From an uncultured Oscillospiraceae bacterium (GTDB taxonomy: Bacteria; Bacillota; Clostridia; Christensenellales; CAG-314), in assembly GCA_964577535.1 (NCBI GenBank), contig CAZNZO010000003.1:69620-133619 (forward strand): 64,000 nucleotides of DNA, in the 5' to 3' direction. Under the pieces are notes generated by a model. It was not told the DNA's origin and searched no databases. It worked only from the letters and a program-made list of their open reading frames with translations. Each line of letters opens with the position of its first letter. Positions within the stretch are counted from its first letter, which is position 1. Of this stretch, positions 3,446 through 60,511 are shown piece by piece. The translations under genes were made by a program, and so were the position numbers.

Positions 3446-5152
3446 TTATGGTTCAATTCGGGCAAAATACCCGTGCGCTTTTGCATTCATCGCCTTGTAG
3501 GAAAGGGCTGCAAAAACAAAACAAGCTGCTAGCAAAACAATCCACATAAGCACTATTGCCCATATCGAAGCAGTGCCCACAAACCAAACAATGAACCCTG
3601 CGGACAATGCGGCAAGCGCAATGAAGATAATAAAGCCAACCAGCATGGCAATCCATGCGTTTTTGGCGTTTTTCAAACTTTGGTTGAAGTTTGTCCAGCC
3701 AAGTTTGGGCGACTTTAGATCCACCAAGGTGGTTATACACATTCCGCCAAAGCCGAGCAACAACATGGAAACTAGCATTGCTATGCCAAAATACCATTGC
3801 AAGCCAAACAGCAAAACGGAAAGCAAGATTGTTAGAAAGTCGACAACAAGCATCAACGCCGTGGACAAAATAACTTTGGAAAGCAAAATTTTGCTAAAAT
3901 CCACCGGCAAAGTTTTTAGCAAATACAGCGAGTTGTTTTCGCGCGAAATGGGATACATCCCCAAAACGTTGCTGCCAATGCCAAGCATGGACATATATGC
4001 CACAATAACTAGCGGCGCAACCACTTGATAGATCAAATTGCCTTGCAACACGCCTAGCAGATCGTAGCCGTCACCTTCGCCGGCATTGAACGCAAAGTAG
4101 AAAATTACTATCATTAGCGGCATCATTATTAGACCGGCAAAGGATTGGAAGCCAAGTTGGCTGTTGCGCAACGTTCGTTTTAGGTCGCACACCACCAATT
4201 CTTTTACCACGCCGCGATTGCTAACAACAAGTTGTTCGCCTTTGGCTTTTCTGCGTTTTGCGCCGGTTGTTTCGAGTGAAGAAGACAAAATCCACTTATA
4301 GAACGGCCAGGAAACAAGGGCCACAACGGCAAGCAGAGCGGCGTTTTCCGCCACGGATACGACAAGTGCAACAAGATAGTTGCCAAACGAACTTGCAATA
4401 AGCGCCGCCGAAAGCATAGCGTTGCAATGCAAAACGTTGAATTTTTGCCCAAGCAGTTGCAGTTGAGCAAGCATGGCTGTGATCATTTCCTCGGTGGAGC
4501 CAAATTCTGCGCCGCCTCCTTCTGATTGCAGTGCTGTGAAGATAAGCACGTAGGCAGCAAAGAATACCACGAAAAACAACACTTGTAGCACGGTGCGCAC
4601 CACGCTGTTTTTGCTTATTTTGGAAATGAGCGCCGAAAATGGCATTGCTAGCAAGCATCCCACAAGCAGTGGCAAAATGGGCAACAAAACAAGCACGAAA
4701 GGCAAAGTTAGGTAGAAACCAGCCGAAGCGCCTGCGCCAACGCCAAATGGCACTAGCAAAAATAAAATTGTTGCCGCAGTTGTGATAGCTTCGCTTATAT
4801 AGACCACTGTGAATTTTGCCAAGAACACCGTGACAGGGCTGATGGGCAAACACAAAAGACGATCGGCATCTTTGTTGTTGAACACGTTGGATATAAGCGA
4901 CATTGTGCCAAAAATCAAAACCAAACCTTGGCACACTGTTATTAGCAAGGTTAAAACGGAAAGATCCATTCCGCACACTTGCCCCAGCGTATAGGCAAAA
5001 ATTGCGATGCCAATTAGCATAGGCAAAAAGCAAATGCCAAGAACAATTATCAGCGCAACTGTTCCGCCACGCTTTTTCTTGCTATTTTCGGTTGGCTTTG
5101 CTCTGTATTGCTGAATGAGCAGCAATTTTAGTAGAGAAAGATATTTCTTCAT
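3446..5152 (-). CDS. polytopic membrane protein, putative permease partner of the adjacent ABC ATPase
   Basis: 568-aa ORF with many hydrophobic segments. It lies 12 nt downstream of the ABC ATPase gene on the same strand. Confidence 0.6.
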   Translation of the reverse strand: MKKYLSLLKLLLIQQYRAKPTENSKKKRGGTVALIIVLGICFLPMLIGIAIFAYTLGQVCGMDLSVLTLLITVCQGLVLIFGTMSLISNVFNNKDADRLLCLPISPVTVFLAKFTVVYISEAITTAATILFLLVPFGVGAGASAGFYLTLPFVLVLLPILPLLVGCLLAMPFSALISKISKNSVVRTVLQVLFFVVFFAAYVLIFTALQSEGGGAEFGSTEEMITAMLAQLQLLGQKFNVLHCNAMLSAALIASSFGNYLVALVVSVAENAALLAVVALVSWPFYKWILSSSLETTGAKRRKAKGEQLVVSNRGVVKELVVCDLKRTLRNSQLGFQSFAGLIMMPLMIVIFYFAFNAGEGDGYDLLGVLQGNLIYQVVAPLVIVAYMSMLGIGSNVLGMYPISRENNSLYLLKTLPVDFSKILLSKVILSTALMLVVDFLTILLSVLLFGLQWYFGIAMLVSMLLLGFGGMCITTLVDLKSPKLGWTNFNQSLKNAKNAWIAMLVGFIIFIALAALSAGFIVWFVGTASIWAIVLMWIVLLAACFVFAALSYKAMNAKAHGYFARIEP

Positions 5153-5164
5153 AGGCCACCACCG

Positions 5165-5893
5165 TTAGTTTGCGCCGTCGTTGGTGATGGTTAGGAAAAT
5201 GCTTTCCAACGAAACGTTTTCGTCTGCACGAATGTTATCCAAAGTGTCCACTGCAACAAGCTTGCCATGGTTTATTATGGCAATTCGGTCGCAAACCTTT
5301 TCCACCACGTCAATTACGTGTGAACTGAAAAAGACGGTGTTGCCGGCATCGGCGTGCTTGCGCATTAGTTGCTTCAATTGATATGCCGATTGCGGATCCA
5401 ATCCCGTTAGAGGCTCGTCCAAAACCCAAACTTTTGGGCTATGAATAAGCGCGGCAATAATCATCAACTTTTGCTTCATTCCGTGCGAATAGGAAGAAAT
5501 GAGGCTGGGCAACGCATCCGTCAGACCAAACGTTTGGGAATATTCTTCTATGCGGCTTTTTAGCACTTCCGGCTTGACGTCGTACATGGTGCCGATAAAG
5601 TTGAGATATTCGATGCCTTTTAGCGTATCGTAGCACTCGTGATTATCCGGAACAAAACCTATGCGACTTTTGGCAAGCGCCGGGTGCTCGGCCAAATTTA
5701 CGCCGTCCACTTCGATGGTGCCGCAGTTGGGAGACAAAATTCCCGTAATCATTTTTATTGTGGTAGATTTTCCGGCGCCGTTGGGCCCCAAAAACCCAAA
5801 AATTTCACCGTCCAAAATTTCCAAAGATAAATTGTCAACCGCAAGGGTTTTGGATTTGGCATAGGATTTTGAAACGTTAGTTAATCGTATCAT
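5165..5893 (-). CDS. ABC transporter ATP-binding protein
   Basis: Walker A GPNGAGKST, signature-like YSHGMKQKL and Walker B VWVLDEP. The start is placed at ATG 5891-5893 (MIRLTNVSKSY) behind a GGAGG SD; the longer ORF-track start has no SD. Confidence 0.9.
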   Translation of the reverse strand: MIRLTNVSKSYAKSKTLAVDNLSLEILDGEIFGFLGPNGAGKSTTIKMITGILSPNCGTIEVDGVNLAEHPALAKSRIGFVPDNHECYDTLKGIEYLNFIGTMYDVKPEVLKSRIEEYSQTFGLTDALPSLISSYSHGMKQKLMIIAALIHSPKVWVLDEPLTGLDPQSAYQLKQLMRKHADAGNTVFFSSHVIDVVEKVCDRIAIINHGKLVAVDTLDNIRADENVSLESIFLTITNDGAN

Positions 5894-6049: not shown

Positions 6050-7357
6050 TTATTTCTTGGGCTTTTTGGGCTGTCTGCAACCAACGTCCAGACCGTTGCC
6101 GGTCGGGGTGAAAAATACTTGATCTTTCACTTCGTCGGGCAAATATTGCTGTTCCACCCATCCGCCATAGTTGTGCGGATACTTATAGGGTACGTTGTCG
6201 AGAGTTTCCGTATCGCGCGAATAGTTTTTATCCATCAGGTAGGAAGGTACCCTTGCAGTGGGATGCGAGGTGGCACATTCGGTTGCCGCCACTAAAGTTT
6301 CTTCCACCGAGTTGGATTTGGGACAATTGCAAATATACAAAATTGCTTCCGTCAAAGGCAAGCGGCCTTCCGGCAGGCCAATGTTTTGAAAGGCTGTTAA
6401 AGCACTGGTTGCCACCACTAGCGCCATCGGGTCGGCCAAGCCAACGTCCTCGGCGGCGTGAATAACAATTCGCCTTGCAAGTAGCAGAGGATCTGTGCCG
6501 GCTTCCAGCAAGCGTTCAAACCAAAACATGGCCGCATTTGCATCGCTGCCGCGCATGCTTTTGATGAACGCACTGATCATATCGTAGTACATGCCTGTAT
6601 CCACCGAAAGCGCCGGCTTTTGCATGGATTGCGAAGCAGTTAGCTTGTCGACGTGCACTGCGCCGTCGGCATCCATATCGGTTGTCATAACGGCCAATTC
6701 CAAAGCGTTGTAGGCGTTGCGCAAATCTCCAGCACTGGTTTCGGCAATGTATTCCAACGCATCGCTATCCACCTCGATTTTTCGTCTAGAAAGCACTTCG
6801 TCGCGTTGCAAGGCATCTGCAAGCCCCTTCAAAACGTCTTGTTTGGTGAGTGGCAAAAACTCGAACACTCTGCAACGGGAAACGATTGCCCTAGTCATGG
6901 AAACGTAGGGATTTTCCGTTGTGGAGCCAATAAAGGTGATGACGCCTTTTTCAATGGCAGGCAACATGCAATCGCTTTGGGCCTTGCTCCAACGATGGCA
7001 CTCATCCAAAAGCAAATAGGTTTTTTGTCCATAGGCATTGAAACGTTTTGTTGCTTCATCAATTATCTTTTTGGCATCGGCAACACCGCTGCTTACTGCG
7101 TTTAGTTTTTCAAAATGGCTGCCCGTTGTGTTGGCAATTATGTTTGCAAGAGACGTTTTGCCAGTGCCAGGTGCGCCCCAGAAAATGCAACTGCCAATTT
7201 TATCCGCCTTGATGGCGCGACAAAGCAACGAACCGTCGTAGATCAAATGCGACTGCCCGATGAATTGCGAAAGTACACGCGGACGCATACGCTCCGCCAA
7301 TGGAACGTTACCTGTTTTTTCCTGTTGAAAAATTGAATTTTGTTCATACTGTGTCAT
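6050..7357 (-). CDS. rarA: replication-associated recombination protein A (AAA+ ATPase)
   Basis: 435-aa ORF with Walker A GAPGTGKTSLA, Walker B LLLDECHRW and a MgsA/RarA C-terminal region (MFWFERLLEAGTDP). Confidence 0.95.
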   Translation of the reverse strand: MTQYEQNSIFQQEKTGNVPLAERMRPRVLSQFIGQSHLIYDGSLLCRAIKADKIGSCIFWGAPGTGKTSLANIIANTTGSHFEKLNAVSSGVADAKKIIDEATKRFNAYGQKTYLLLDECHRWSKAQSDCMLPAIEKGVITFIGSTTENPYVSMTRAIVSRCRVFEFLPLTKQDVLKGLADALQRDEVLSRRKIEVDSDALEYIAETSAGDLRNAYNALELAVMTTDMDADGAVHVDKLTASQSMQKPALSVDTGMYYDMISAFIKSMRGSDANAAMFWFERLLEAGTDPLLLARRIVIHAAEDVGLADPMALVVATSALTAFQNIGLPEGRLPLTEAILYICNCPKSNSVEETLVAATECATSHPTARVPSYLMDKNYSRDTETLDNVPYKYPHNYGGWVEQQYLPDEVKDQVFFTPTGNGLDVGCRQPKKPKK

Positions 7358-7477: not shown

Positions 7478-7877
7478 TTGCGGCGGCATGAAGATGGCAA
7501 AAATGGGATGGAAATTAATGCAAAACAATGCGTGAAAAAATATGAGCGCAAAGAAGGAACGAAAATGCTGTTGCGTGCATTTGGAATCAACCACAACCGG
7601 CAAAGCGAAAAAAAACAAAAAAAAAGCCCGATGATTCGAGCTTTTGATGGGTGAATTTTGGGATGCGCTTTTACTAAAAACTGACAGGTTTAGGGAAACA
7701 GATAAACTTGGCGGCGGCATGAAGATGGCAAAAATGGGATGGAAATTAATGCAAAACAATGCGTGAAAAAATATGAGCGCAAAGAAGGAACGAAGCTGCT
7801 GTTGCGTGCATTGGGAATCAACCACAACCGGCAAAGCGAAAAAAACAAAAAAGCCCGATGATTCAAGCTTTTGATGG
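7478..7877. repeat. two near-identical ~170-bp direct repeats (7478-7650 and 7708-7877) separated by a 57-bp spacer, period 230 bp
   Basis: Hand alignment shows only about 4 substitutions plus A-run length changes between the copies. Confidence 0.9.
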
Positions 7878-8242: not shown

Positions 8243-8782
8243 CTATTTTTCTGCAACATATTGCAAAAATTCGGGCGTTTGACTCCAATATTTTATGCCC
8301 CAATTTTCAAAATTCCATTCGTCCATATAGGCATTACATTCGTAGTCGACGTAGACCATTTTGCCGCCAGTCACAACAAAATTTGTTGGGAAATAGTCCA
8401 CGTTGAGCCCGGCAGCATAAAGTGTTTTGCAAATTTCTTTCATTTGCAAAATTAGCACATCTACTTCGGCTTGGCGGCCATCGCGTACCAATTGGAACAC
8501 GGTGGGACCATCCACAAACTGCTTCAAAATTCTTTCGTTTGCCACGTCGCAATCCACTAGCTGCGGCAAAGGCATGCCAACTTCGCACAAACGCTTGTAG
8601 TCGCGAAGTTCCGATTGCAACTTGTCGCCAAAATTGTAGTAGCTGCACGGTTCGTGGTGAATTTGCTTCAAAACAAACTGATGCGCGCCATCCGTTACCA
8701 AATAGGAATATCCGCCCTTGCCGTGCCCCAAAATGCGCACCACTTCGAAGGGCTTGTTGTTTACACAAATGACCTCTGGCAT
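8243..8782 (-). CDS. small protein-kinase-like-fold protein (function unknown)
   Basis: 179-aa ORF. It has a Gly-rich loop GHGKGGYSY, a VLKQIH Lys, a catalytic-loop-like NVDYFPTNF and VYVDYE. It ends 3 nt after the LysR gene. Confidence 0.6.
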   Translation of the reverse strand: MPEVICVNNKPFEVVRILGHGKGGYSYLVTDGAHQFVLKQIHHEPCSYYNFGDKLQSELRDYKRLCEVGMPLPQLVDCDVANERILKQFVDGPTVFQLVRDGRQAEVDVLILQMKEICKTLYAAGLNVDYFPTNFVVTGGKMVYVDYECNAYMDEWNFENWGIKYWSQTPEFLQYVAEK

Positions 8783-8785
8783 AGG

Positions 8786-9664
8786 CTAATCCGAATATCT
8801 AAATTGCTTGGCAAACTGAATGAAATTTTCCGCATCGGAAAACAAACTGCCGCCCTTCGACCAAATTAGCACGATTTGCTGCGTGATCTTTTCGTCCAGA
8901 GGAATGCACACCAATTCGTCGTCCATTTCGGCAATTTGTCTATACAAAAATGCACCGGCCGTGCCGTAGGACAAAAATTGTTTGACTGTGTAGAGTTGCG
9001 AAGAATAAAGCAAAATGTTGGGTTCCACGCCGGCCGCGGCAAAAGCGTTTTTGATGACGACGTTTTGATAGCTATCCGCCTTGAACAAAATTTGCTTTTC
9101 GTTGGCAAGTTGCTTGAATGAAACAGATTTTTCCTTTGCCAAATGGTGATTTTTGTTGACACAATAGACAAGTTCTGTTGTGACAAGGGGCAAAATGTTG
9201 TAGTCGTCGGTTACGGCGCCATCCAAAATGGTTATGCCCAGGTCGACGGCGTTGGTATCCACAAGTTTGCGTGTTTGCAAGGACCCTGTTTCCAGCATTT
9301 CTAGCTGTACGTTGGGGAAGGCCTTTGTGTATTCATCGAACATTTGCGGGAACAAAAATGTGGAAATCATGGCGGGCACGGCAATTTTTACGTGGTTGCG
9401 GTTGGACGAAAGTTCTTGCATTTGCCTTTCCAATGCATCCACCGATTGCAAAATGTATTGCACCTTTTCGTAGAAAAATTGCCCCTCCACCGTTAGTTGC
9501 AACCTGTTGTGTTTGCGATGAAACAGCTTTACGCCAAACTCTTCCTCTAGTTCCTTTATGCAAAAGGAAATTGTGGGCTGGCTGACGAAGAGTTTTTCCG
9601 CCGCTTTTGTGATGCTTTCGTATTTGCAAACCGTTTGAAAATATTTTAGTTGCAACAACTTCAT
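8786..9664 (-). CDS. LysR-family transcriptional regulator
   Basis: N-terminal HTH region MKLLQLKYFQTVCKYESITKAAEKLFVSQPTISFCIKELE. The start is set at ATG 9662-9664 behind a GGAGG SD. Confidence 0.9.
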   Translation of the reverse strand: MKLLQLKYFQTVCKYESITKAAEKLFVSQPTISFCIKELEEEFGVKLFHRKHNRLQLTVEGQFFYEKVQYILQSVDALERQMQELSSNRNHVKIAVPAMISTFLFPQMFDEYTKAFPNVQLEMLETGSLQTRKLVDTNAVDLGITILDGAVTDDYNILPLVTTELVYCVNKNHHLAKEKSVSFKQLANEKQILFKADSYQNVVIKNAFAAAGVEPNILLYSSQLYTVKQFLSYGTAGAFLYRQIAEMDDELVCIPLDEKITQQIVLIWSKGGSLFSDAENFIQFAKQFRYSD

Positions 9665-9732
9665 GGCTGACCTCCGAACGAACCGCATAAATTTTGCCGA
9701 TAATTGCGGCGAGTTGATAAAAAATCTTTATA

Positions 9733-9761
9733 ATTATAGCAAAATAAACGAGAAAATGCAA
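9733..9761 (-). promoter_or_regulatory. sigma-A-type promoter of the LysR gene: TTGCAT-17-(TGc)TATAAT
   Basis: Minus strand; the -10 is at 9733-9738 with a TG extension and the -35 at 9756-9761. Confidence 0.5.
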
Positions 9762-10060
9762 CGAATAGCACCAGGAAAAAGAAATGTTTGAACAAATATT
9801 TCGCTATTGTAAAGTGAAAAGCGCAAAATAGAGCGGCTTGAAAAAGCTTGGGTGAACGAGCGTGCACACCTGACGACTTGTGCGCTGAGGTTGAAAGTTT
9901 TTTGAAAATTGAAATTAAATGTTCGGCAAGAGAATAGTTGCCGATAAGAAAAACGGAAAAGCAGAGAAAAATGTAGTGAGAATGTGAAAAATTGTGAATT
10001 TATTGACGGAGTGCGAAAACGGGTTGAAAGAAAAGACAAAACCCATTGTGCGGCACTAAA

Positions 10061-10680
10061 AACACACCAATATTTGAAAAATCTGGCGTAGAAAAAATAC
10101 AAGGATGGGCGTGAATGGCAATGTGAAAACGAGAAATTTTGAGCGATAAAATGCAACAGAATAGAAAAACGAAATGTACAAAAAGTCAAGGAATTTTGTG
10201 TGGCAAAAGAAATGGGCAACTTTTAGTAGAAATGCAGTTAATTGCAATGCTAAAAATGGCCGAAGTAAAAAATCTATTGTGACGAAGATAGGTGAAATAA
10301 AAAATTTGAAGTGAGATTGTGTAAAAATTTGCGAGAATGAATTTGCACGGCCATGAAATACACACCATTATTTGAAAATACAGGCGTGGCAAAAATGGCA
10401 AGGATATTGGCACAAATGACAATGCGAAAAACGAGAAATTTTGAGAGATAAAATGCACAGAATGAACAAAAATAGAATGCGTGAAAAGGCAAAACAATTT
10501 GTATGGCAAAAAATAAGAGACTTCCAGTTGAAAAACACAAAAATTGCAATGCTAAAAACTGCAAAAAAGCAATTTTCAGTGAGAAAGCCTGCAAAATTAC
10601 AGGCTGAAAATATAAAAGAAATGGTCAACTTTTAGTGGAAATGCAGGTAATTGCTATGCAAAAAATGGGCGAAGTGAAGT
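10061..10680. repeat. degenerate tandem duplication (period ~300 bp) inside a ~1-kb A-rich non-coding region
   Basis: Shared blocks are cacaccaWtatttgaaaa (10064 / 10362), aacgagaaattttgagMgataaaatgca (10128 / 10430) and caacttttagtRgaaatgcagKtaattgc (10217 / 10626). Confidence 0.7.
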
Positions 10681-10729
10681 GTGAATTTTTAGCGGAGAAC
10701 GTATGAAAATTAACGCTACAAACGGCAGG

Positions 10730-11833
10730 TCAATCGGGCAAAAGTTCCACCAAAATGGAATTTAGCACGTAGAATTTGTCGTCAGGAACAAACACGCGGC
10801 CGTTTTGGGAGCACAAAAAGCCCTTTTGCGCCAATTCTTTGGCTTTGGGGAATTTATCGAAAAAGTTGCAGTTGTAACGCTGTTGGAACAACACAAGATC
10901 CACCCCTTGTTGCAAACGCAAACCCACAATTGCACATTCGCAGGCTTGTTCGTCCTGGGAAATTGTTTCCTGGTATTGCTTTGCGGTTGCATTGGAAGAA
11001 ACGTATTCGTCAATGCCAAAAGCGTTGCCATAGCGCACATCGCCAACAAAGCCGCTGGCGGCGGCGCCAAAGCCAAAGTATCTGTCTTCCTGCCAGTAGG
11101 TCAAGTTGTGACGACATTCGAAGCCGGGGCGGCAAAAGTTGGAAACTTCGTAGCGACAAAAACCGTTTTCGGAAAATTTTTGACGAGCAAAATCGTAGTC
11201 GTCGGCAAGCTCGTCTTCCGTGCGGGCATAGGACTGGCAAAGCTTGTTGAATGCCTGGTTTTCGTGCAGTTCAAGCGCATAAAGACTGACGTGTGTTAGT
11301 GGCAATTTGCATACCTGTTCGACAGTGTTTTGAAAGTCGGTGCGCGTTTCTGGCAGGCCCAAAATGAGGTCGGCATTAACGTTGGTGAACCCTGCTTCAC
11401 GGGCAAGTTGCAGGGCTCGCAAAAATCCGTCGTAGGTGTGCAAACGCCCAATTCTTTGCAACGTGGCATCGCTAGTACTTTGCAAACCGAAACTAAGGCG
11501 GTTGACACCAATGCTATGGAAAAATTGAAAGAGTTCGCTGCTGGCACTTTCCGGGTTGCACTCCACTGTGAATTCGCAAAGTTCCGACAGATCGAATGTT
11601 TCGTTTAGCGCACGGAACGTTTGTTTAAGAAATTCAATTTTTACCGAACTGGGCGTACCACCACCCCAAAAGATGGTTTTTATTTTGCCGCAAGGTTTTG
11701 CGCTGCGAATCTCCTTTTCCAGCACGTCGAAATAGGTTTTGCAAGCAGAAAAATTTGTGCTAGAAGAAAAAGCGCAGTAAGCACACCGCGCTTTGCAAAA
11801 CGGAATATGAACGTAGATTGCTGTTGTTTTCAT
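10730..11833 (-). CDS. hemW: radical SAM heme chaperone HemW (oxygen-independent coproporphyrinogen-III oxidase-like)
   Basis: 367-aa ORF with the CxxxCxxC cluster CKARCAYCAF near the N-terminus. It lies downstream of lepA, as in other Firmicutes. Confidence 0.9.
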   Translation of the reverse strand: MKTTAIYVHIPFCKARCAYCAFSSSTNFSACKTYFDVLEKEIRSAKPCGKIKTIFWGGGTPSSVKIEFLKQTFRALNETFDLSELCEFTVECNPESASSELFQFFHSIGVNRLSFGLQSTSDATLQRIGRLHTYDGFLRALQLAREAGFTNVNADLILGLPETRTDFQNTVEQVCKLPLTHVSLYALELHENQAFNKLCQSYARTEDELADDYDFARQKFSENGFCRYEVSNFCRPGFECRHNLTYWQEDRYFGFGAAASGFVGDVRYGNAFGIDEYVSSNATAKQYQETISQDEQACECAIVGLRLQQGVDLVLFQQRYNCNFFDKFPKAKELAQKGFLCSQNGRVFVPDDKFYVLNSILVELLPD

Positions 11834-11942
11834 TTTTCCTCTGCTTTTTTCTTAAAAATTGTATGTTATGTTTGCCATAATACTCTACAATTTGCACAAA
11901 CTCGGCACAATTCGCTATTTTAGCGCCATTACACCGCTTTAA

Positions 11943-12177
11943 CTACACTAAAGACGGGAAACACAAAAATCGGTTGTTTATCTCCAAAATAGACCTGAGC
12001 GCTAGGCTGGGAACACTGACGGACCCCACCTGGCGCACGCGTTTTTCGCCCTCTTTTTGCTTTTCCAAAAGTTTCTTTTTGCGTGTTATTATCTGGTAGC
12101 ACGTTGCAAAAATGTTTTTGCGCAGTGCCTTGACAGTTGTGCGAGCAATAATTTTATTGCCCCACCACGGCCGCTTT
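11943..12177 (-). pseudogene. degenerate tandem copy of the last ~64 codons of lepA
   Basis: The minus-strand frame reads [63 protein letters not shown]. The LepA C-terminus reads [64 protein letters not shown]. The copy has no start codon or SD and is out of frame with the lepA stop. Confidence 0.8.
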
Positions 12178-12190
12178 AGCTAACACAAAA

Positions 12191-13990
12191 CTAGTCGTCT
12201 ATCTTTAAAATAGACATGAACGCTTCGCTGGGAACGCTGACGGAGCCCACCTGACGCATACGTTTTTTACCTTCTTTTTGCTTTTCCAAAAGCTTCTTTT
12301 TGCGTGTTATATCGCCGCCGTAACACTTTGCCAAAACGTCTTTGCGTAGCGCCTTGACTGTTTCGCGAGCAATAACCTTGTTGCCCACCGCCGCTTGCAC
12401 AGGAATTTCGAACATTTGGCGAGGGATGGCTTCTTTTAGTTTTTCGGCAATTTGTCTGCCTCGAGCATAGGCACGTTCTTCGTTGACAATGATGGAAAGC
12501 GCGTCGCACATTTCGCCGTTAAGTAGCATATCCAAACGCACAAGTTTGCCCGGCACGTAGCCTTTAAGTTCGTAGTCCAAGCTGGCGTAGCCGCGCGTGC
12601 GAGATTTCAACGTGTCGAAAAAGTTGTAGATAATTTCGTTTAGGGGAATGTCGTAGGAAAGTTTTACGCGCCTGGTATCCAAATAGGTCATATCCAAAAA
12701 GGTTCCGCGTTTTTCCTGGCACAGGCCCATAACGTCGCCGACATATTCCTTCGGACAAAACACTTCTGCCGCAACAATAGGCTCTTCAATGTGGTCGATG
12801 GCCGTTACCGGAGGCAATTTGGTGGGGTTATCTATCAGCAGCATTTCCCCTTGAGTTGTGTAAACTTTGTAGCTTACGCTGGGCGCCGTCGTTACCAAAT
12901 CCAAATCGAATTCCCTCTCCAAACGCTCTTGAATTATTTCCATATGCAACAATCCCAAAAAGCCGCAACGGAAACCAAAACCCAAGGCAACGGAGGTATC
13001 CGGTTCGTAAACAAGAGATGCATCGTTAAGTTTCAACTTTTCCAAAGCATCCTTCAAATCGTTGTATTTGCTGCCGTCTGCCGGGTAAATTCCGCAGAAC
13101 ACCATGGGCTTCACATCTTTGTAGCCCTTCAAAGGCTCCTTGCAGGGGTTTTCGGCATCGGTTAGCGTATCCCCCACCTTGGTGTCGCAAACCGTCTTGA
13201 TGCTTGCGCAAACGTAGCCAACGTCGCCAGCTTTAAGTTCGGCAACCGGTTGTGTGGAAGGCGCAAAAACGCCAACTTCCGTCACGTCGAAAACTTTGCC
13301 CTTTGTTTCGAACATTTTTATTTTGGTGCCCACTTTAACAGAGCCATCCACAATGCGAACAAAAATGATAACACCTTTGTAGTTATCGTATTGGCAATCG
13401 AAAATAAGCGCTTTTAGCGGCTGGTCTTCACTGCCCGACGGGGGCGGAACCAAATCGACCACGGCATCCAAAACGTCCTGAATGTTCAATCCCTCTTTGG
13501 CCGAAACCAACGGCGCCGCAGATGCATCCAAACCGATGGCATCTTCAATTTCCCTTTTGCAACCTTCCACGTCGGCAGAAGGCAAATCTATTTTGTTGAT
13601 GACGGGAATTATTTCCAAATCGTTTTCCAACGCAAGATAGCAGTTTGCCAGCGTTTGCGCTTCCACGCCTTGCGAAGCATCCACCACCAACAAAGCTCCT
13701 TCACAGGCGGCAAGAGAACGCGAAACTTCGTAGTTGAAGTCCACGTGGCCGGGGGTATCTATCAAGTTTAGTTCGTAGTCCACGCCGCCCTTTTGGTAGG
13801 TCATTTTTACCGGCGTAAGCTTTATTGTTATGCCGCGCTCACGCTCGATATCCATGCTATCCAGCATTTGCGCTTCCAAATCGCGTTTGGCAACTTGGCC
13901 GGTGAATTCCATAAGACGATCGGCCAAGGTGCTTTTGCCGTGGTCGATGTGGGCTATTATGCAAAAATTTCTCTTGTTTTTTTGTGTCAT
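12191..13990 (-). CDS. lepA: translation elongation factor 4 (LepA)
   Basis: 599-aa ORF with G1 [14 protein letters not shown] and NKID motifs and a LepA-specific C-terminal domain. Confidence 0.97.
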
Positions 13991-14991: not shown

Positions 14992-17559
14992 ATGGGAAGA
15001 AGAGTTTTAGCCTTTTTCTTGGGAATGATTTTTGGCATAATATTCCTTTTGGGCAGTTTGGCACTGGGGATATATCTTGCCATAACCGTGATAAAGCCTA
15101 GCGACATAAGCGCAGATGCTTCCACATACATGGGGGATTTGGCCGACATGTCCTTGCTGGATATGGTGCAAAGCGTACAGCAACTTTACACCGAACAACT
15201 GGGGCTGACGGACGAAAACGGCGACTATTTTAGCTTGGGCGATTTTTTGGACAACTACAACATCAATTGCGAAACGGCGTTTGGCATAGCGTTGCCACAA
15301 TCGGTTTTGGACGTTCCTGTGTTTGAATATTTCAACGAGGGCAGTGTAGACAATGCCTTGCAACAAATAAGCGTGGCAACCCTTCCGGCAATAATCAACA
15401 TGTTTGCGACGGAAGAAGGCGGCTACATTAGTGCCGAAACAATGGAAAAGCTGGATGCTTTCACCATGAAAGACCTGTTTGACGGCGAAAAGGGCGTTAC
15501 CTACGTTTTTGACGACGTGCGTTTTGCCGATTTGCTGGCAAATTCCTTCCCGGCGGCCGATTCGGACAACAAATTTATGTGGGCCATTGGGCAAGGTCGC
15601 ATTGGCCGGCTTTACGGCGCGCTTAGCGGTTCGGAAAGTTTATTTATGCAACTGAAGGAGGACGGAGGATTATCCGACCTGGGCAGTTTGCCTGTTACGG
15701 AAGTTTTGGGCGGCAGTTCCGGCGTGCTGGGTGCCATGCTTGGCGATGCATCTTTGGGTAGCATGGTGGACGAAAACGGCGCATTGAACTTTGACCAAGT
15801 GCTTGAAAAGACCTACGTTGGAAGCTTGCTTGCTTGCATTCGCAACGAAATTGAAGACGTTAGCGGCTACACGGAGGTTGAACTGGAAGGCGACACTATT
15901 CTTGCAAAAACAGAAAACGGCAAAACGCTTTTTGCCAAGGCAGACGGTGAAAAACACTTTGAAGTTGTGCAATATTGCACGGTGAAAGACATTGAACACG
16001 TGCACGATGCAAGTTGCTACGACTTTGCTTGGTACAACTCGATGGCGTTATCGGCAGGACACTCCAATTGCAAAGATAACGAACTTATTGCCGAAGACGG
16101 ACACCACTCTCGCATAAGCGGCATATACAAGGCGCTTGTTAACCTTTACGTAAGCGATTTGATGGGCGGTTCTTCTGCCGTTATTATGGAAGGCATGCAA
16201 AACGTTACCATAAGCGAAATGATGGACGGCAAGGTTAGCGGAGTTATGGCTAACTTCAAGGATATGACCATCCATGAAATGCTTAATGGTGGCGTTGACG
16301 AAATTTATTTGGGCTCGTTTATTGGTTACACTCGCACCACGGCCACCAAGCCGCAAGAATTTGAAAAACTTGGCGACGTTTACTTGGGCAAGAACGGAGA
16401 TAGATACGTTATGTCCGAAGAGGGCGCCGATTGGTACAACGCAAAACTTATTTGCGAAAACACCGATGCTTCCCACAAACACAGCCGCAGTTGCTATTCC
16501 TACGAATGGATGAACGGCACAAAACCTGCCAAAGGCCTTATGGCGAAACTATCCGAAAGCAAACTGGGCGAACTTAGCAATTTGAACGACATTATTCTTT
16601 CTAGCACCGTTAGCGACGTTTTGGGGGATAACCTTACCGGCATTATGGCGGAGCTGAAAGATACTCCACTTAAAAATTTGTCGTCAGAAATGAACAACGT
16701 ATATTTGGGCGCAGCAATGAACTTCTACCGCAAGAGCGTGGACGTTGCCGGCTACTCGAAGGTGGACGGAATATCCAACCTTATGCAAAAGGACGGACAG
16801 TTTGCCAAGAGCGACGACGGCAAAAAATGGTACCTTGCGGAACTTGATTGCGACAAAGATCACACTCACACCGCCGCTTGCTACGCATACGTTTGGTATA
16901 AAAACGCCGCAAGAACCATTCCCGTTACCGGCGTGCAAAAATGTTTTGTGAACTCTAAGCTGGGCAACTTATCCTCCACCATGGACAACCTGACGTTGAA
17001 AAAGCTAAGAGTTGGCGGAAACACCATTTTAAATGCAATGGGCGACGTGCCGTTGATGGCGTTGAACACCCAAATGAAAGTGATGAAACTGGGCGTTGTT
17101 TTTGATTTTGTGGAAGACAAAACCAGCGGCGTTAGCGTTTGGTATGAGCGTTGCAAAACAGGTTGCGGACACTCGGCAGGCCAACACGTGCGTTTGGAAG
17201 GAGAAACAGGCTACTTCACACCGGCAAAAGGCATAAACGCAAAGATGGCAAACATGACACTTTCGAACCTTATGACTGGCCAAGGCATGACGAGCATTGT
17301 TAGCGAATTTACCGTACGTGAAATGCAAGATAGCGGCATACTTTCCTTCACGGAACAGGACGAATACAAACTGGACGTTATTTTTGATTCCACAGGGGAA
17401 TGTTCCCTTGCCGACTACTTTATGCAACGAGCAACAAACTCGGCGCTGACCGCAAAACAATACTATCAAAGCAAGCACGGCGACGACCAGACGACGCGCG
17501 GAGAGTGGAAAGACGTTAAGTTTTCGGTATTTTTCAAAAAACTGTTGCAAGCAATATAG
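14992..17559 (+). CDS. 855-aa membrane-anchored extracytoplasmic protein with repeated Cys/His modules (function unknown)
   Basis: GAGGTGA SD and one N-terminal TM helix (VLAFFLGMIFGIIFLLGSLALGIYLAI). There are three full internal modules ending in C-x(5-6)-H-x-H-x(3)-CY-x-[FY]-x-W. Confidence 0.85.
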   Translation: MGRRVLAFFLGMIFGIIFLLGSLALGIYLAITVIKPSDISADASTYMGDLADMSLLDMVQSVQQLYTEQLGLTDENGDYFSLGDFLDNYNINCETAFGIALPQSVLDVPVFEYFNEGSVDNALQQISVATLPAIINMFATEEGGYISAETMEKLDAFTMKDLFDGEKGVTYVFDDVRFADLLANSFPAADSDNKFMWAIGQGRIGRLYGALSGSESLFMQLKEDGGLSDLGSLPVTEVLGGSSGVLGAMLGDASLGSMVDENGALNFDQVLEKTYVGSLLACIRNEIEDVSGYTEVELEGDTILAKTENGKTLFAKADGEKHFEVVQYCTVKDIEHVHDASCYDFAWYNSMALSAGHSNCKDNELIAEDGHHSRISGIYKALVNLYVSDLMGGSSAVIMEGMQNVTISEMMDGKVSGVMANFKDMTIHEMLNGGVDEIYLGSFIGYTRTTATKPQEFEKLGDVYLGKNGDRYVMSEEGADWYNAKLICENTDASHKHSRSCYSYEWMNGTKPAKGLMAKLSESKLGELSNLNDIILSSTVSDVLGDNLTGIMAELKDTPLKNLSSEMNNVYLGAAMNFYRKSVDVAGYSKVDGISNLMQKDGQFAKSDDGKKWYLAELDCDKDHTHTAACYAYVWYKNAARTIPVTGVQKCFVNSKLGNLSSTMDNLTLKKLRVGGNTILNAMGDVPLMALNTQMKVMKLGVVFDFVEDKTSGVSVWYERCKTGCGHSAGQHVRLEGETGYFTPAKGINAKMANMTLSNLMTGQGMTSIVSEFTVREMQDSGILSFTEQDEYKLDVIFDSTGECSLADYFMQRATNSALTAKQYYQSKHGDDQTTRGEWKDVKFSVFFKKLLQAI

Positions 17560-28999: not shown

Positions 29000-31987
29000 T
29001 TGAACGTTGTTGGCCCTGTGGACGACATCTACTACGCAACGCCCAACCAAGATATTTACATTAGCATTCACATAGACAACCCCGATAGCTACGAAATATT
29101 ATCTTTCACGCTTAACGGCAAAAAATACACCGGCTACATGTTCGAAGAAGGTTCGGACATGGAAACCATAATTCTTAAATACAACGTGGGCAATACTAGC
29201 GGCATTGTTAGCTACACCATTGATGCAATTAAATACGTGGACGGCACTGCCATTAAGGACGTTCTTATTGACGGCAACAAAACGGTTATGGCCGGCATAA
29301 AAACTCAAGATCAAATAACCGCAAAAATTAGCGATTTTGCCGTGGAAACCAACTCCGTTTCCCTTGAAGCATCGGTAAAAGACAATGACAACCTTGTGGA
29401 ATTTTCATCCGGCACGCTTAAAGCAGTGTTATACGACGGCGAAAACATTGTTGAAGAAAAAGATATTTCCGTTGGCAAAAACCAAGTTTCCTTCCAAAAC
29501 CTTGGCACAAACACAATCTACCAATATGCAATTGTTGGATTTTTCGATGACCTTTCTGGAAATGGCTTCCAAATGCACGTGTTGCACAAGGATGCTTTCT
29601 TTACCGATTCCGTTTTGCTTTTTGATAACGTCAAGGTTACGCAAACAGGCATAACTTTTGGCTTTGTTTGGCACAAAAACCATGCAGGCAAAACCCTTAC
29701 GTCCCTTTCGCTTTATCAAAACCAACAACTTGTGCAATCGCTACACGCCGATGCAACAAGCATAGAAAACTTGCTTTGCAACAACACATATCAACTTGTT
29801 GCAGAATATCCCAACGGCAATGCAACGGAAAGCATCAGCATAGAATTCACCACCATTGCCAAGGCAACGCCGCAAGTGGAAATTAGTGGCACGCCCACAC
29901 AAACCAGCATAGACTTTGCAATTGACGTGACGGATACCGACAGCGTTGGCTCCATTACGGATATTGAACTTATCCACGGAGAAGACGTTGTTTCGGCACA
30001 ATCCACCGACCTTCGCACTTTTGCAAACTTGCTTAGCAACAACGCATACACGGTGAAAGTTACCTACACATACAACTTGAACGACGGCGAAGGCGACCAC
30101 GCTTTGACCAAGCAATTTGATACCACCACCATTGCCAAGGCAACGCCGCAAGTGGAAATTAGCACCCCCGAAGCAGGTGAAAAAACTGTGACGGCGGAAT
30201 ACCAAATTTCCGATGCCGACAATATTTGCATTGTTGATTCGGTGAAGATTTTGCAAGGTGAAAACGAAATTGCAAAGAACGACGAAAAGAAAATTGATTT
30301 TGCAAACCTTAACTACTACACGGAATATACCATTGTTGTTGCCTACACCTACAATCTTAACGACGGAACTGGCGATCATAGCCAAACGGTGCAAAACGTT
30401 TTCAAAACATTGCCGTACCTGGAATTTGATTCGTGCAAGGTGATAAACACTTCGGCAGTTAGCGAAGGGGAAACAATATACATTCAGGCAACGCTAGATA
30501 ACCCTTGCGCGGCCACTCCCATAAGCGCAGTGGTTAACGGAAAAACCTATACCTGTGCAGGCTCCACCTCCACTAGCAAAGTTTATCTTGAAATTGTGAA
30601 TGACGGCCAATTTGAAGGTGGCGACACCACTTTGAGCGTTGAAAAAATCAACTTGCAATTGGATGGCAACCCCTACACAGTAAAGACAGAAAAAAACAAT
30701 TCCGGCACGGTGTTTATAAACGGCAAATTGGAAGTTGCATCTTTCCAATTGGTGAATGGCCAAGGCGAGGCTGTTGACTGGTGTTTTGGGGACGACAATT
30801 CCTACGTTCTTTTGACACTTAAAAACAAAACTGGATACAGCATTGACAGTGTTGTGGTCACAAGCGATTGGAGTGAAATGACTCTTACGCCAACCCGGAT
30901 TGACGACGAACACTACAAAATTGAGTATGACAAAAACTACGGTTGGAACGGATTGGAATTGAAATCCATAAGTTACCACAACGAATACCTTAGCAAAACA
31001 ATTGCCATTGGAGATTGCTATTCGAATTGGATGTACATCCTAGATAACCATGTTGAAGAAATTTCAACACGAGAACAGTTGTTGAACACAACTTACAACC
31101 GCTACCATGGCTACTACAAATTGACTGCCGATATTGATCTTGGCGGAATGGAATGGACAAATTTGGGCATGCTTGAAGGTGTGTTTGATGGAAACGGCCA
31201 CACCATATCCAACATGAGCAACGTTTCCACTATAACAGATACAAATGCTGTTATAGGATTGTTCAGCAGCGTAGTTGGCATTGTGCAAAACCTGAATATA
31301 GCGGACGTGACCGTGTTGATAACAGTGACTTCGACCACAGAATCCAGCTATGATGCATATTTTGGTGGAATTTTTGCGCGAAAGGATAACTACAGACGTG
31401 TTATCGTATCAAATTGCTCAGTTACGGGCGACATTGGCATAAAGAATACAACAAAAGGTGAAAGCAACGTCGGTGGAATTATCGGACATTATGCCTATTG
31501 CACCTACATGAATGTTAAAAATTGCAATGTGGACACATCCATAACAGTAAGTGAAAATAGCACATGCTCGGTTGGCGGTTTGATTGGCTATACTCATTAC
31601 GGTACAACTGCTGTTACTGATTGCGAAGCAAAAGTTGACGTTACTGTTAACGCAACTGAATACAGTTATGTTGGCGGTTTGATTGGCTATGCTGATGGAA
31701 CTACTACCGCAACTGATTGCGAAGCAAAAGTGAATATTGACGTGAAAAACGGCGATACACCCGCAGGAACTGCCGGTGGCATAATTGGGCTAGCCGATTG
31801 GTATTCAATATGCAATGTTAATAATTGCAACGTGCAGGGAACAATAAAAGCCGCAAATGCCGAAGTTATTGGCACAATGTCCCGCAACGTATCTAGTTTG
31901 GAATTCAAGAACAACCAGTGCGACGTTTATATTAACGGAACAAAAATAACAGAAATTGCCGACGAAACATATAAGTATCAACGATAA
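29000..31987 (+). CDS. large surface protein body: Ig-like tandem repeats plus C-terminal GLUG-motif repeats (continuation of the lipoprotein gene)
   Basis: 995-aa ORF. It has two ~92-aa tandem repeats (TIAKATPQVEIS...TYTYNLNDG.GDH) and a C-terminal ADIDLGGMEWTNLG..FDGNGHTISN followed by repeated VGGLIGY/GGIIG units. The ORF itself has no signal peptide. Confidence 0.85.
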   Translation: MNVVGPVDDIYYATPNQDIYISIHIDNPDSYEILSFTLNGKKYTGYMFEEGSDMETIILKYNVGNTSGIVSYTIDAIKYVDGTAIKDVLIDGNKTVMAGIKTQDQITAKISDFAVETNSVSLEASVKDNDNLVEFSSGTLKAVLYDGENIVEEKDISVGKNQVSFQNLGTNTIYQYAIVGFFDDLSGNGFQMHVLHKDAFFTDSVLLFDNVKVTQTGITFGFVWHKNHAGKTLTSLSLYQNQQLVQSLHADATSIENLLCNNTYQLVAEYPNGNATESISIEFTTIAKATPQVEISGTPTQTSIDFAIDVTDTDSVGSITDIELIHGEDVVSAQSTDLRTFANLLSNNAYTVKVTYTYNLNDGEGDHALTKQFDTTTIAKATPQVEISTPEAGEKTVTAEYQISDADNICIVDSVKILQGENEIAKNDEKKIDFANLNYYTEYTIVVAYTYNLNDGTGDHSQTVQNVFKTLPYLEFDSCKVINTSAVSEGETIYIQATLDNPCAATPISAVVNGKTYTCAGSTSTSKVYLEIVNDGQFEGGDTTLSVEKINLQLDGNPYTVKTEKNNSGTVFINGKLEVASFQLVNGQGEAVDWCFGDDNSYVLLTLKNKTGYSIDSVVVTSDWSEMTLTPTRIDDEHYKIEYDKNYGWNGLELKSISYHNEYLSKTIAIGDCYSNWMYILDNHVEEISTREQLLNTTYNRYHGYYKLTADIDLGGMEWTNLGMLEGVFDGNGHTISNMSNVSTITDTNAVIGLFSSVVGIVQNLNIADVTVLITVTSTTESSYDAYFGGIFARKDNYRRVIVSNCSVTGDIGIKNTTKGESNVGGIIGHYAYCTYMNVKNCNVDTSITVSENSTCSVGGLIGYTHYGTTAVTDCEAKVDVTVNATEYSYVGGLIGYADGTTTATDCEAKVNIDVKNGDTPAGTAGGIIGLADWYSICNVNNCNVQGTIKAANAEVIGTMSRNVSSLEFKNNQCDVYINGTKITEIADETYKYQR

Positions 31988-48418: not shown

Positions 48419-48797
48419 GACAATTAAAAAACAAAAATTTACTGCAAAAGGCAACTGTTGAGAATAGAAAACTTGTTACAAAACAAACCGAAAAGCAAAC
48501 CGAAAAAGTGTGTAGATGAGTTTTGAATAGTGGTTGAAAAAGATTGAGCAATTAAACCCAAAACACTTGGAAGCATCAAATCTTTTCAACAAAAGCAGAG
48601 AGGTTGCCAAGGCATTTTTCCTTATGTTTGGAAAATGTACTACACCATTTTGGGCGCTAAAAAACAATTAATGAATACAAAACTCAATAAAAGCAATAAT
48701 GTTTTCGATAGTCGAATTTCACAATTAAGAAACCAAAACTTGTTGCGAAAGGCAACGATTAAAATCACAAAACTTGTTTCAAAATGAACCGAAAAAC
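48419..48797. repeat. diverged ~77-nt direct repeats (48419-48495, 48720-48797), period ~301 bp, inside the ATPase-permease gap
   Basis: The copies align as caattaaRaaac...gcRaaaggcaac...aaaacttgtt.caaaa..aaccgaaaa, about three quarters identical by eye. Confidence 0.6.
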
Positions 48798-48861
48798 AAT
48801 GGAAAGAAACAAGCAAAGCAGGCGAACAAAAAAGAAAAAATTTACATGCACGGAGGAAAAA

Positions 48862-59457: not shown

Positions 59458-60511
59458 TTTTCTTGTTCCAATTTTTTGCACACGACAATGCCGTGTTTTG
59501 TGTGTTAACTCCCCGACCCCCTTGCACCACCGATGAGAAAAATTGAGAGATATATTTTGCAATTGTGCCGCCATGTTTTTTGACATCCAAAGCCACAACA
59601 GCATCAAGGCGTTTTTTTGAACACAAGCCACAACGAGATGATTGTTGCTTAATTTCAATTATCTGATAAGACTTTTAGAAAGTTTTTCAATCAAGATATT
59701 TTTTTGACTACTTTGGCTTTCTATTGCACTGCAAACAGAAAAATTGAATTGATACAAAAGACAATAATTTTGGCCATCCGTTTTCGCATCCCGCCTGCTT
59801 TTTGCGTCTTCTTAGAATACGATCGACCGCATGGCTACTCGCATTGTTGAGGGCTATCTGTTTTTGTTTAGAGAGTTATTTTCTGTTGAGGTTTCTGTTA
59901 TTGCTCGCTATGTTGAATTTAAGCCGTTACAGCCCATTGAAATTTTGTGTAGCAATGTGCCCGTCAAAACTCAACAATAAGCGATAGGTTTAAAACCCTG
60001 CACCACCGATGGGAAATGTTGAAGGGATACAAAAGCCAATGATTTGGGCCGTCAGATTTCGCATCCCGCCACTTTTAGCGTGTTTTGGCAAATTCGTTTG
60101 GCATTGTGGTTTTGCGAAAATTTTGGTTTGGTGGCGGCCAAATCGATTCCGTCTTTACCTGTTTTTTTCGATGCTTTTTTTGCGTTTTTCTATTTCAGGT
60201 TTTATTTTAGCGTTGCAAGTTTTTCGTTCTTTATTTTTATTCTTGAGTTTTTTGCTTTGTATATTTTTTTCTATTGCTGGTTTTGTTTGTGGTTGCAAAC
60301 TTTTTATTTCCTTGCAAGCCTTGGTTTTTCCAAATATTTATCCTAACAAGTTTTTTGTTTTGCGAATTTTGTATTTGCAAATTTTGCGTTAATTTTCGTT
60401 AAGTAACTTGCCGCAGCAGCGGGGTTTAGGTAGCTTGCACGCGAACACACAACTTTGCACAAAAGCCGCCAAAAGGCAAACAATGCCGCCAGACTGCACG
60501 TTTGCAAACAA

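Follow-up and report, generated by a model that had tools for sequence, protein, structure and literature searches.

The spacer downstream of lepA in the stretch of DNA analysed here (64,000 nt, referred to throughout as the window) contains a second, decaying copy of the 3′ end of that gene, and the best explanation of this copy, which we hold to be very probable, is a single tandem duplication followed by neutral drift of the dead downstream unit. The parental gene is intact, and its homologues at 87–95% identity carry the name 'translation elongation factor 4' in their sources. The spacer that separates lepA from hemW is 357 nt long in the window and is made up mostly of the second lepA 3′ end. 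The features of the locus, all of them on the minus strand, are the following:

12191..13990, minus strand: lepA (elongation factor 4), intact, 599 aa, an ORF with Pfam domains GTP_EFTU, GTP_EFTU_D2, EFG_C and LepA_C
12391..12396, minus strand: AAGCGG microhomology at the start of unit 1, within lepA
12177..12396, minus strand: unit 1, 220 nt, comprising the last 68 codons of lepA, the TAG stop and 14 nt of 3′ flank, delimited by alignments and by edges set at AAGCGG
12180..12182, minus strand: TAG in the frame of the copy, between the lepA stop and the copy, blocking read-in from upstream
12171..12176, minus strand: AAGCGG at the junction of unit 1 and unit 2
11940..12176, minus strand: unit 2, 237 nt, the decaying copy at 80% identity to unit 1, comprising the lepA-derived segment, the former stop region and the original 3′ flank
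11973..12161, minus strand: lepA-like in-frame segment of the copy, 63 codons (GNKIIART...LEINN), recognized by tblastn, codon alignment and Pfam LepA_C
11943..11945, minus strand: TAG closing the open frame of the copy
11934..11939, minus strand: AAGCGG directly after unit 2, the original downstream site
10730..11833, minus strand: the downstream gene, HemW/HemN-like radical SAM (hemW), 367 aa, with Pfam Radical_SAM and HemN_C

Unit 1 is the parental, functional unit. The two units abut head to tail with zero sequence between them, and their homology runs beyond the stop codon into the non-coding flank (TTTTGTGTT...A(G/A)(C/T)TAAAGCGG); the tail of unit 2 is in turn homologous to the post-stop flank of L094, a relative with an empty site. 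The hexamer AAGCGG occupies all three unit boundaries, and this m-U-m-U-m layout is the signature of tandem duplication at microhomology. In L087, AAAAGCGGTGCAAT lies 17 nt past the lepA stop, and can be compared with the AAGCGG that follows unit 2. The lepA-hemW spacer is 134 nt long in L094, 207 nt in L095 and 110 nt in L088; the duplication is what made it grow from about 130 nt to 357 nt.

When the post-stop DNA is aligned locally with the lepA 3′ end, about 80% of the positions agree across some 220 nt. In the self-blastn of the window, 12182-12396 matches 11960-12176 at 80.0% identity over 220 nt with an E-value of 5.8e-48, a similarity far above chance. At the protein level, tblastn aligns the copy to LepA with 47 of 64 residues identical (73%, E = 1e-17), the codon alignment of copy and lepA has 47 of 63 residues identical and 36 nucleotide differences in 189, and the translated copy still matches Pfam LepA_C with an E-value of 3.6e-18. 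The repeat was measured by pairwise alignment and blastn because it was missed by Tandem Repeats Finder, from whose output it is absent. The first-pass annotation of this DNA had reported a tandem copy of the lepA 3′ end just downstream of the gene, and such a head-to-tail duplicate is indeed what the alignments reveal; its coordinates, its identity, its open frame with the terminal TAG at 11943-11945 and its offset from the lepA frame had all been given correctly.

A spurious duplication made by the assembler is conceivable in principle, as the window comes from a metagenome-type assembly, and some contigs of a third strain break within the copy. The probability of such an artefact is nevertheless negligible. 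Four independent single-run assemblies (SRR14160767, SRR14160769, SRR14160763, SRR22923250) belonging to two run series agree at 100% over the 801 nt that reach from the lepA end across the copy into the start of hemW, and three further strains have diverged versions of the copy. Moreover, the units are 80% identical, and the longest exact word common to both is 20 nt; assemblers neither collapse nor invent repeats that share no word >20 nt. The misassembly against which the first-pass annotation had cautioned is thus answered by the four identical assemblies and by the short shared word. As for the broken contigs, those of L096-L099 stem from several runs and all have their first base within the copy, at one position in three cases and 13 nt further on in the fourth. 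The opening 33 nt of these contigs are identical to L093's parental sequence, and in a de Bruijn assembly a 31-mer shared in this way would cause a break here. In L086 a gene caller placed a partial 46-aa gene in the +1 frame of the copy. The lepA repeat is in this respect a warning to annotators and assemblers, with a frame that scores as LepA_C, a partial gene call and contig breaks.

The distribution of the copy among relatives dates the event. A genome scan with LepA at the species level yielded only relatives with at most 73% identity, with conserved peptides flooding the candidates, and a second LepA C-terminus within 4 kb was found in none of these 80 species-level relatives (0/80). Closer relatives were drawn from a protein search, from members of the 90% cluster and from exact-protein look-ups. 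Among these the copy is present in four strains: the window strain, L093 (LepA 99.2% identical to that of the window, lepA dS = 0.074), the L096-L099 group and L100. It is absent from L094 (LepA 98.5% identical, lepA dS = 0.42) and L095 (97.3%, dS = 0.59), and no echo of lepA was found in six loci with 90–95% identical LepA (L087-L092). In L094 the flank after the lepA stop aligns with the flank that follows unit 2, which identifies this relative as an empty site. All complete copies have in common a +4 nt insertion at the 5′ edge, a deletion in the GGCGGC patch and several substitutions, including GAA to AAA or ACA; these shared indels and substitutions point to a single origin. The copy branch amounts to about 0.14–0.19 substitutions per site (24–31 changes in 186 sites), a divergence smaller than half of the hemW dS to L094 (0.51/2). 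Comparison of this branch with the hemW dS, which is 0.17–0.24 among the four carriers and 0.51 to L094, places the duplication on the stem of the four strains, after the split from L094.

At codons 25 (ATA), 31 (CTT), 45 (GTG) and 47 (TCC), parent and copy agree in synonymous states that are derived with respect to five close relatives, and the copy retains an ancestral ATT (Ile) and an ancestral AAA that have since changed to GTT and AAG in the lepA of the window. At the nucleotide level the copy matches its own lepA most closely, with 80% identity, and none of 92 other lepA genes exceeds 78%. Judged from these sequences, the copy is a descendant of the adjacent resident lepA and not a foreign allele. 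Both observations count against a different history, in which the lepA 3′ end was the target of an integrating element, since lost by deletion, that brought a replacement end with it (like e14 in icd), or in which a foreign lepA allele was joined via homology-facilitated illegitimate recombination; in either version the old and the new 3′ ends would lie side by side, diverged from birth. Such a history would fit the 20% divergence of the units at a locus where relatives with 98.5% identical LepA have no copy, and it has a precedent in the 163-bp pseudo-icd′ duplicate left by the integration of e14 in icd (PMC6379469). We consider it highly improbable, however: no mobile element, integrase, element remnant or ORF was found between or beside the units, their only neighbours being lepA upstream and hemW downstream, and a bare AAGCGG forms the junction. 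The functional lepA 3′ end groups with those of the relatives of the strain, which argues against a foreign origin for that end. A past as a functional allele would also have concentrated changes at third positions, whereas those on the copy branch are evenly spread, and the age of the copy fits the strain tree without any pre-existing divergence. The likeness to pseudo-icd′ (e14 or phage 21 in E. coli icd, PMC6379469) lies in a gene 3′ end that is present twice, once intact and once as an orphan of about 160–240 bp. In E. coli the prophage separates the icd copies and the functional end is phage-borne, whereas the lepA copies abut, without a mobile element, and both derive from the resident gene.

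On the tandem-duplication reading that we favour, a small group of related strains of an uncultured gut Clostridia species inherited one event of about 220–237 bp from their common ancestor. To judge from the junction, two AAGCGG hexamers, one within lepA, 68 codons ahead of the stop, and the other about 20–35 nt past the stop, would have been misaligned by replication slippage or unequal exchange at microhomology. The upstream unit would have stayed joined to lepA, under strong purifying selection; the downstream unit, with no start codon, would never have been functional and would have drifted neutrally since its birth, gathering substitutions at all codon positions together with indels that differ among strains. 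Short-tract gene conversion with the adjacent lepA end, as a few sites indicate, probably reshuffles a small part of the differences. A short-junction class is discussed for gene duplication and amplification (PMC1428787, PMC11721125), and short bacterial tandem duplications bounded by microhomology, of the kind made by RecA-independent slipped misalignment, resemble the present one in several respects: the units are head to tail, with a 6-nt direct repeat at every boundary here, relatives have an empty site, and single units are lost or gained between strains. The classic cases are, however, kilobase-scale, unstable and under gene-dosage selection; the lepA case is about 230 bp long, involves the gene end only, is fixed in its lineage and is 20% diverged.

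The frame of the copy (which begins LKRPWWGNK) is open for 78 codons, up to the TAG at 11943-11945. It is offset with respect to the lepA frame, and the TAG at 12180-12182 intervenes between the two. The only in-frame start in the copy is a TTG at 12068; by reading of the sequence, no ATG is present in the copy and no Shine-Dalgarno motif precedes this TTG. With a sole TTG start and an intervening TAG, the initial view that the copy has no start codon or Shine-Dalgarno motif, is out of frame with the lepA stop and should be silent at the protein level is supported.

The integrity attributed to the frame in the first-pass annotation fares less well. What had been described as a clean 3-nt deletion (GGD to QI) is really a net change of −3 within a complex patch, in which TACGGCGGCGATATAACA of the parent corresponds to TACCAGATAATAACA of the copy, so that the change takes either several indels or a single 3-nt deletion together with 6 substitutions spread over two codons; the net length change at this GGCGGC patch is −3 in the window, −4 in L100 and −5 in L093. 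Nor is it correct that the copy is without frameshifts or stops. In the window it bears a +4 nt indel at its 5′ edge (CGGTGGG to CCGTGGTGGGG) and an extra nucleotide immediately ahead of the former stop codon, and in sister strains it is both frameshifted and stopped: the copy of L100 has a −4 frameshift and its lepA-derived frame meets stops (…KCYEI*HAKRSF*), and that of L093 has three extra 1-nt deletions, which result in a shifted stretch and an early stop. The frame of the copy relative to the lepA stop varies among strains; in L093 it is in frame with that stop, with no other stop in between. Finally, the open frame is not the anomaly that it had been taken for. When the inferred ancestor was subjected to 20–36 random substitutions in a neutral simulation, the 63 codons remained stop-free in 26–60% of the runs, and the +1 frame of the copy, which was never coding, is just as open (about 70 codons in the window, about 63 in L093). 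The copy segment is simply stop-poor, and the unbroken frame in the window is a chance survival in one strain. A mutational bias of bacterial pseudogenes toward 3n deletions is described in PMC6054270. With regard to the order of events at the patch, an ancestral net change of −3 with later 1-nt deletions on the L093/L100 side would be the more parsimonious history, given the weak grouping of these strains by hemW (97.3% identity for L093/L100 versus 95.9–96.7% for the other pairs). An independent restoration of the frame in two lineages was considered as well, and rejected on account of the same weak pairing of L093 with L100.

These observations also bear on whether the copy could be functional, either as a small LepA_C-like peptide (with translation starting at the TTG at 12068 or running on past the lepA stop through readthrough or frameshifting) or as a structured 3′UTR or hemW leader RNA, in which case selection would keep the frame or the fold. 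The 78-codon open frame in the window, a translation that still scores as LepA_C and the stop-free path that places the copy of L093 in frame with the lepA stop can all be cited in its favour. A function of either kind is nonetheless very unlikely. No ATG or Shine-Dalgarno motif is seen and a TAG lies between lepA and the copy in the frame of the latter; the frame relation to lepA changes from strain to strain, with stops in L100 and a shifted stretch followed by an early stop in L093; replacements have occurred at invariant LepA residues, GGD has been lost, and the rate of change between strains equals the synonymous rate. As for the RNA, Rfam gave nothing relevant in 9500-12500 at E-values up to 1, the fold of the copy has a z-score of only −1.59 against shuffled controls, and a scan of the minus strand found neither promoter-like nor terminator-like sites within the copy.

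The way in which the copy has changed is that of DNA under no constraint. Polarised changes on the copy branch number 24 and are split 12:6:6 by codon position; those on the parent branch are five, of which four are at third positions, and the seven ambiguous changes are all at third positions. All 16 of the 16 replacements in the copy, as well as the loss of GGD, fall on residues that are invariant in relatives. Between the window and L093 the divergence of the copy is 15.7% plus 3 indels, compared to 1.9% for lepA, 4.5% for hemW and 7.6–8.7% for other spacers. The copy-copy distances among strains (0.15–0.23, versus 0.05 for the parental 3′ ends) match the hemW dS values of 0.17–0.24, and thus correspond to a neutral rate. 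A dN/dS check of the copy against lepA had been proposed. The pairwise value for parent versus copy is 0.33, not about 0.5–1, but it is uninformative alone, as it comes from only 42 synonymous sites and mixes a constrained with an unconstrained branch; it does not contradict neutral decay, and was supplanted by the polarised counts, the inter-strain rates and the frame comparison, of which the counts and the rates are neutral. On the evidence of its sequence the copy is a dead fragment evolving at the neutral rate, the product of a real but ordinary partial tandem duplication.

That the copy has lasted for about 0.15 substitutions per site counts against simple decay; this is a long time, as junk DNA in bacteria is as a rule soon purged (PMC6054270). 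The sites also form mosaic patterns among strains; the copy of L100, for example, is parent-like where those of the window and L093 share changes. With these mosaic sites a tree-like neutral history is incomplete, and gene conversion, inter-strain recombination or metagenome chimerism is needed in addition. In comparison with the bacterial pseudogene fragments of the PMC6054270 data set, the lepA copy has the same lack of a start, substitutions at all codon positions, strain-specific indels including a net 3n deletion, and a rate equal to the synonymous one. It differs in that it was born dead as a partial duplicate, rather than by the inactivation of a gene, and in that an intact parent lies directly upstream, permitting gene conversion.

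Signs of such conversion are seen in the part of lepA that lies inside the duplicated unit, which corresponds to the following positions:

12191-12396 in the window
4595-4800 in L093
1361-1566 in L100

Between the window and L093, lepA differs by 5.3% inside unit 1 and by 1.5% in the rest of the gene, i.e. 3.5 times as much (Fisher p = 0.0012). Codons 41, 43 and 49 of the L093 lepA are CGC, CGC and AGT, like those of the copies, whereas the lepA of the window and the outgroups have CGT and AGC. Parent and copy also co-vary by strain at alignment columns 149 and 173, which are C/C and T/T in L093 and T/T and C/C in L100. Together with the parental L093 sequence at the start of the L096-L099 contigs, these patterns suggest short-tract conversion in both directions, from a handful of sites and with chimeric metagenome contigs as another possible source. 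Concerted evolution of duplicated translation-factor genes via gene conversion occurs in tufA and tufB of enterobacteria. The lepA case resembles it in that parent and copy vary together from strain to strain at nearby synonymous sites, and differs from it in that one partner is a non-functional fragment, the tract is about 30–45 nt long and only a handful of sites are involved.

The first-pass annotation had seen in the lepA repeat a sign that tandem duplication of 220–300 bp operates at gene ends in this genome and lengthens its spacers. The second part of this claim is supported by three lineage-specific events within 5 kb; 'at gene ends' was an over-reach, as only the lepA event includes coding sequence. 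The second event has a unit of about 229 nt: self-blastn pairs 7480-7650 with 7711-7877, the copies being 95% identical, within the 885-nt spacer between a 179-aa gene (8243..8782) and a 435-aa gene (6050..7357). In L096 and L097 the same spacer has a single 229-nt unit and is 657 nt long. Both units, read on the minus strand, have a hairpin resembling a terminator (GCTCGAATCATCGGGC) with a T-run behind it. The third event has a unit of about 300 nt, with copies at 10058-10256 and 10356-10558 that are 75% identical, in the 1041-nt spacer between hemW and a LysR gene; L093 has the duplication too, whereas the spacers of L096 (754 nt) and L094 have one unit. Each of the two units in the window is closer to the single unit of L096 (82–85%) than to the other, and the spacer has a third partial match at 10614-10678 (65 nt, 89%).

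The three events are of different ages, with identities of 95% for the 229-nt unit, 80% for the 220–237 nt of the lepA repeat and 75% for the unit of about 300 nt. Of the three, only the lepA echo has a readable source and age. A scan with the terminal peptides of all window ORFs of at least 120 aa found no terminal echo at any other real gene, and self-blastn of the 64-kb window gave local direct-repeat pairs only, with no unit recurring elsewhere as a dispersed repeat or MITE family would. Two more local direct-repeat pairs, 78–81% identical, lie within or next to long spacers: 48420-48498 / 48721-48799, spaced 301 nt apart, and 59738-59810 / 60013-60084, spaced 275 nt apart. Within the 995-aa ORF at 29000..31987 there are direct repeats at 29848-29886 / 30124-30162 (100%, 39 nt) and 31571-31635 / 31670-31731 (83%, 65 nt), which are probably repeats at the protein level. 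It is possible, if rather doubtful, that the lineage has an unusually high rate or tolerance of 220–300-bp tandem duplications, building long repeat-filled spacers; if the size class reflected a specific mechanism, such as template switching at a fixed distance or a repair defect, this would be a new feature of genome evolution in the clade. A dead partial duplicate is mostly without wider importance, and its uses are modest. The lepA echo documents the growth of a spacer in this clade by short tandem duplication and not by mobile elements, and the copy is a built-in neutral yardstick beside a highly conserved gene: the synonymous sites of lepA change about half as fast as neutral DNA (dS of 0.074, versus 0.16 for the copy and 0.17 for hemW).

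Across the genus, the spacer between lepA and hemW varies greatly. In L089 a 107-aa hydrophobic ORF is inserted in it (4959-5282), and in L090-L092 (4801-5516) it is 690–720 nt long and unrelated to that of the window, with an internal 25-nt duplication in L092 relative to L090. At 11861-11885, some 30–50 nt before hemW begins, stands an inverted repeat, TAYTATG-N5-CATARTA (minus strand GAGTATTATGGCAAACATAACATAC). The lepA-hemW spacers of L087-L095 and L100 cannot otherwise be aligned, yet this repeat can be made out in them; in L093 it is a perfect one (TATTATGTCAAACATAATA), and it may serve hemW as a promoter or operator. Elsewhere in the window, at 14992-17559, an 855-aa ORF runs divergently from the GDPD gene; no strain has a Pfam hit recorded for it. 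Its N-terminus resembles a membrane anchor, and it has repeated Cys-containing motifs and a dN/dS of 0.14 between the window and L093.
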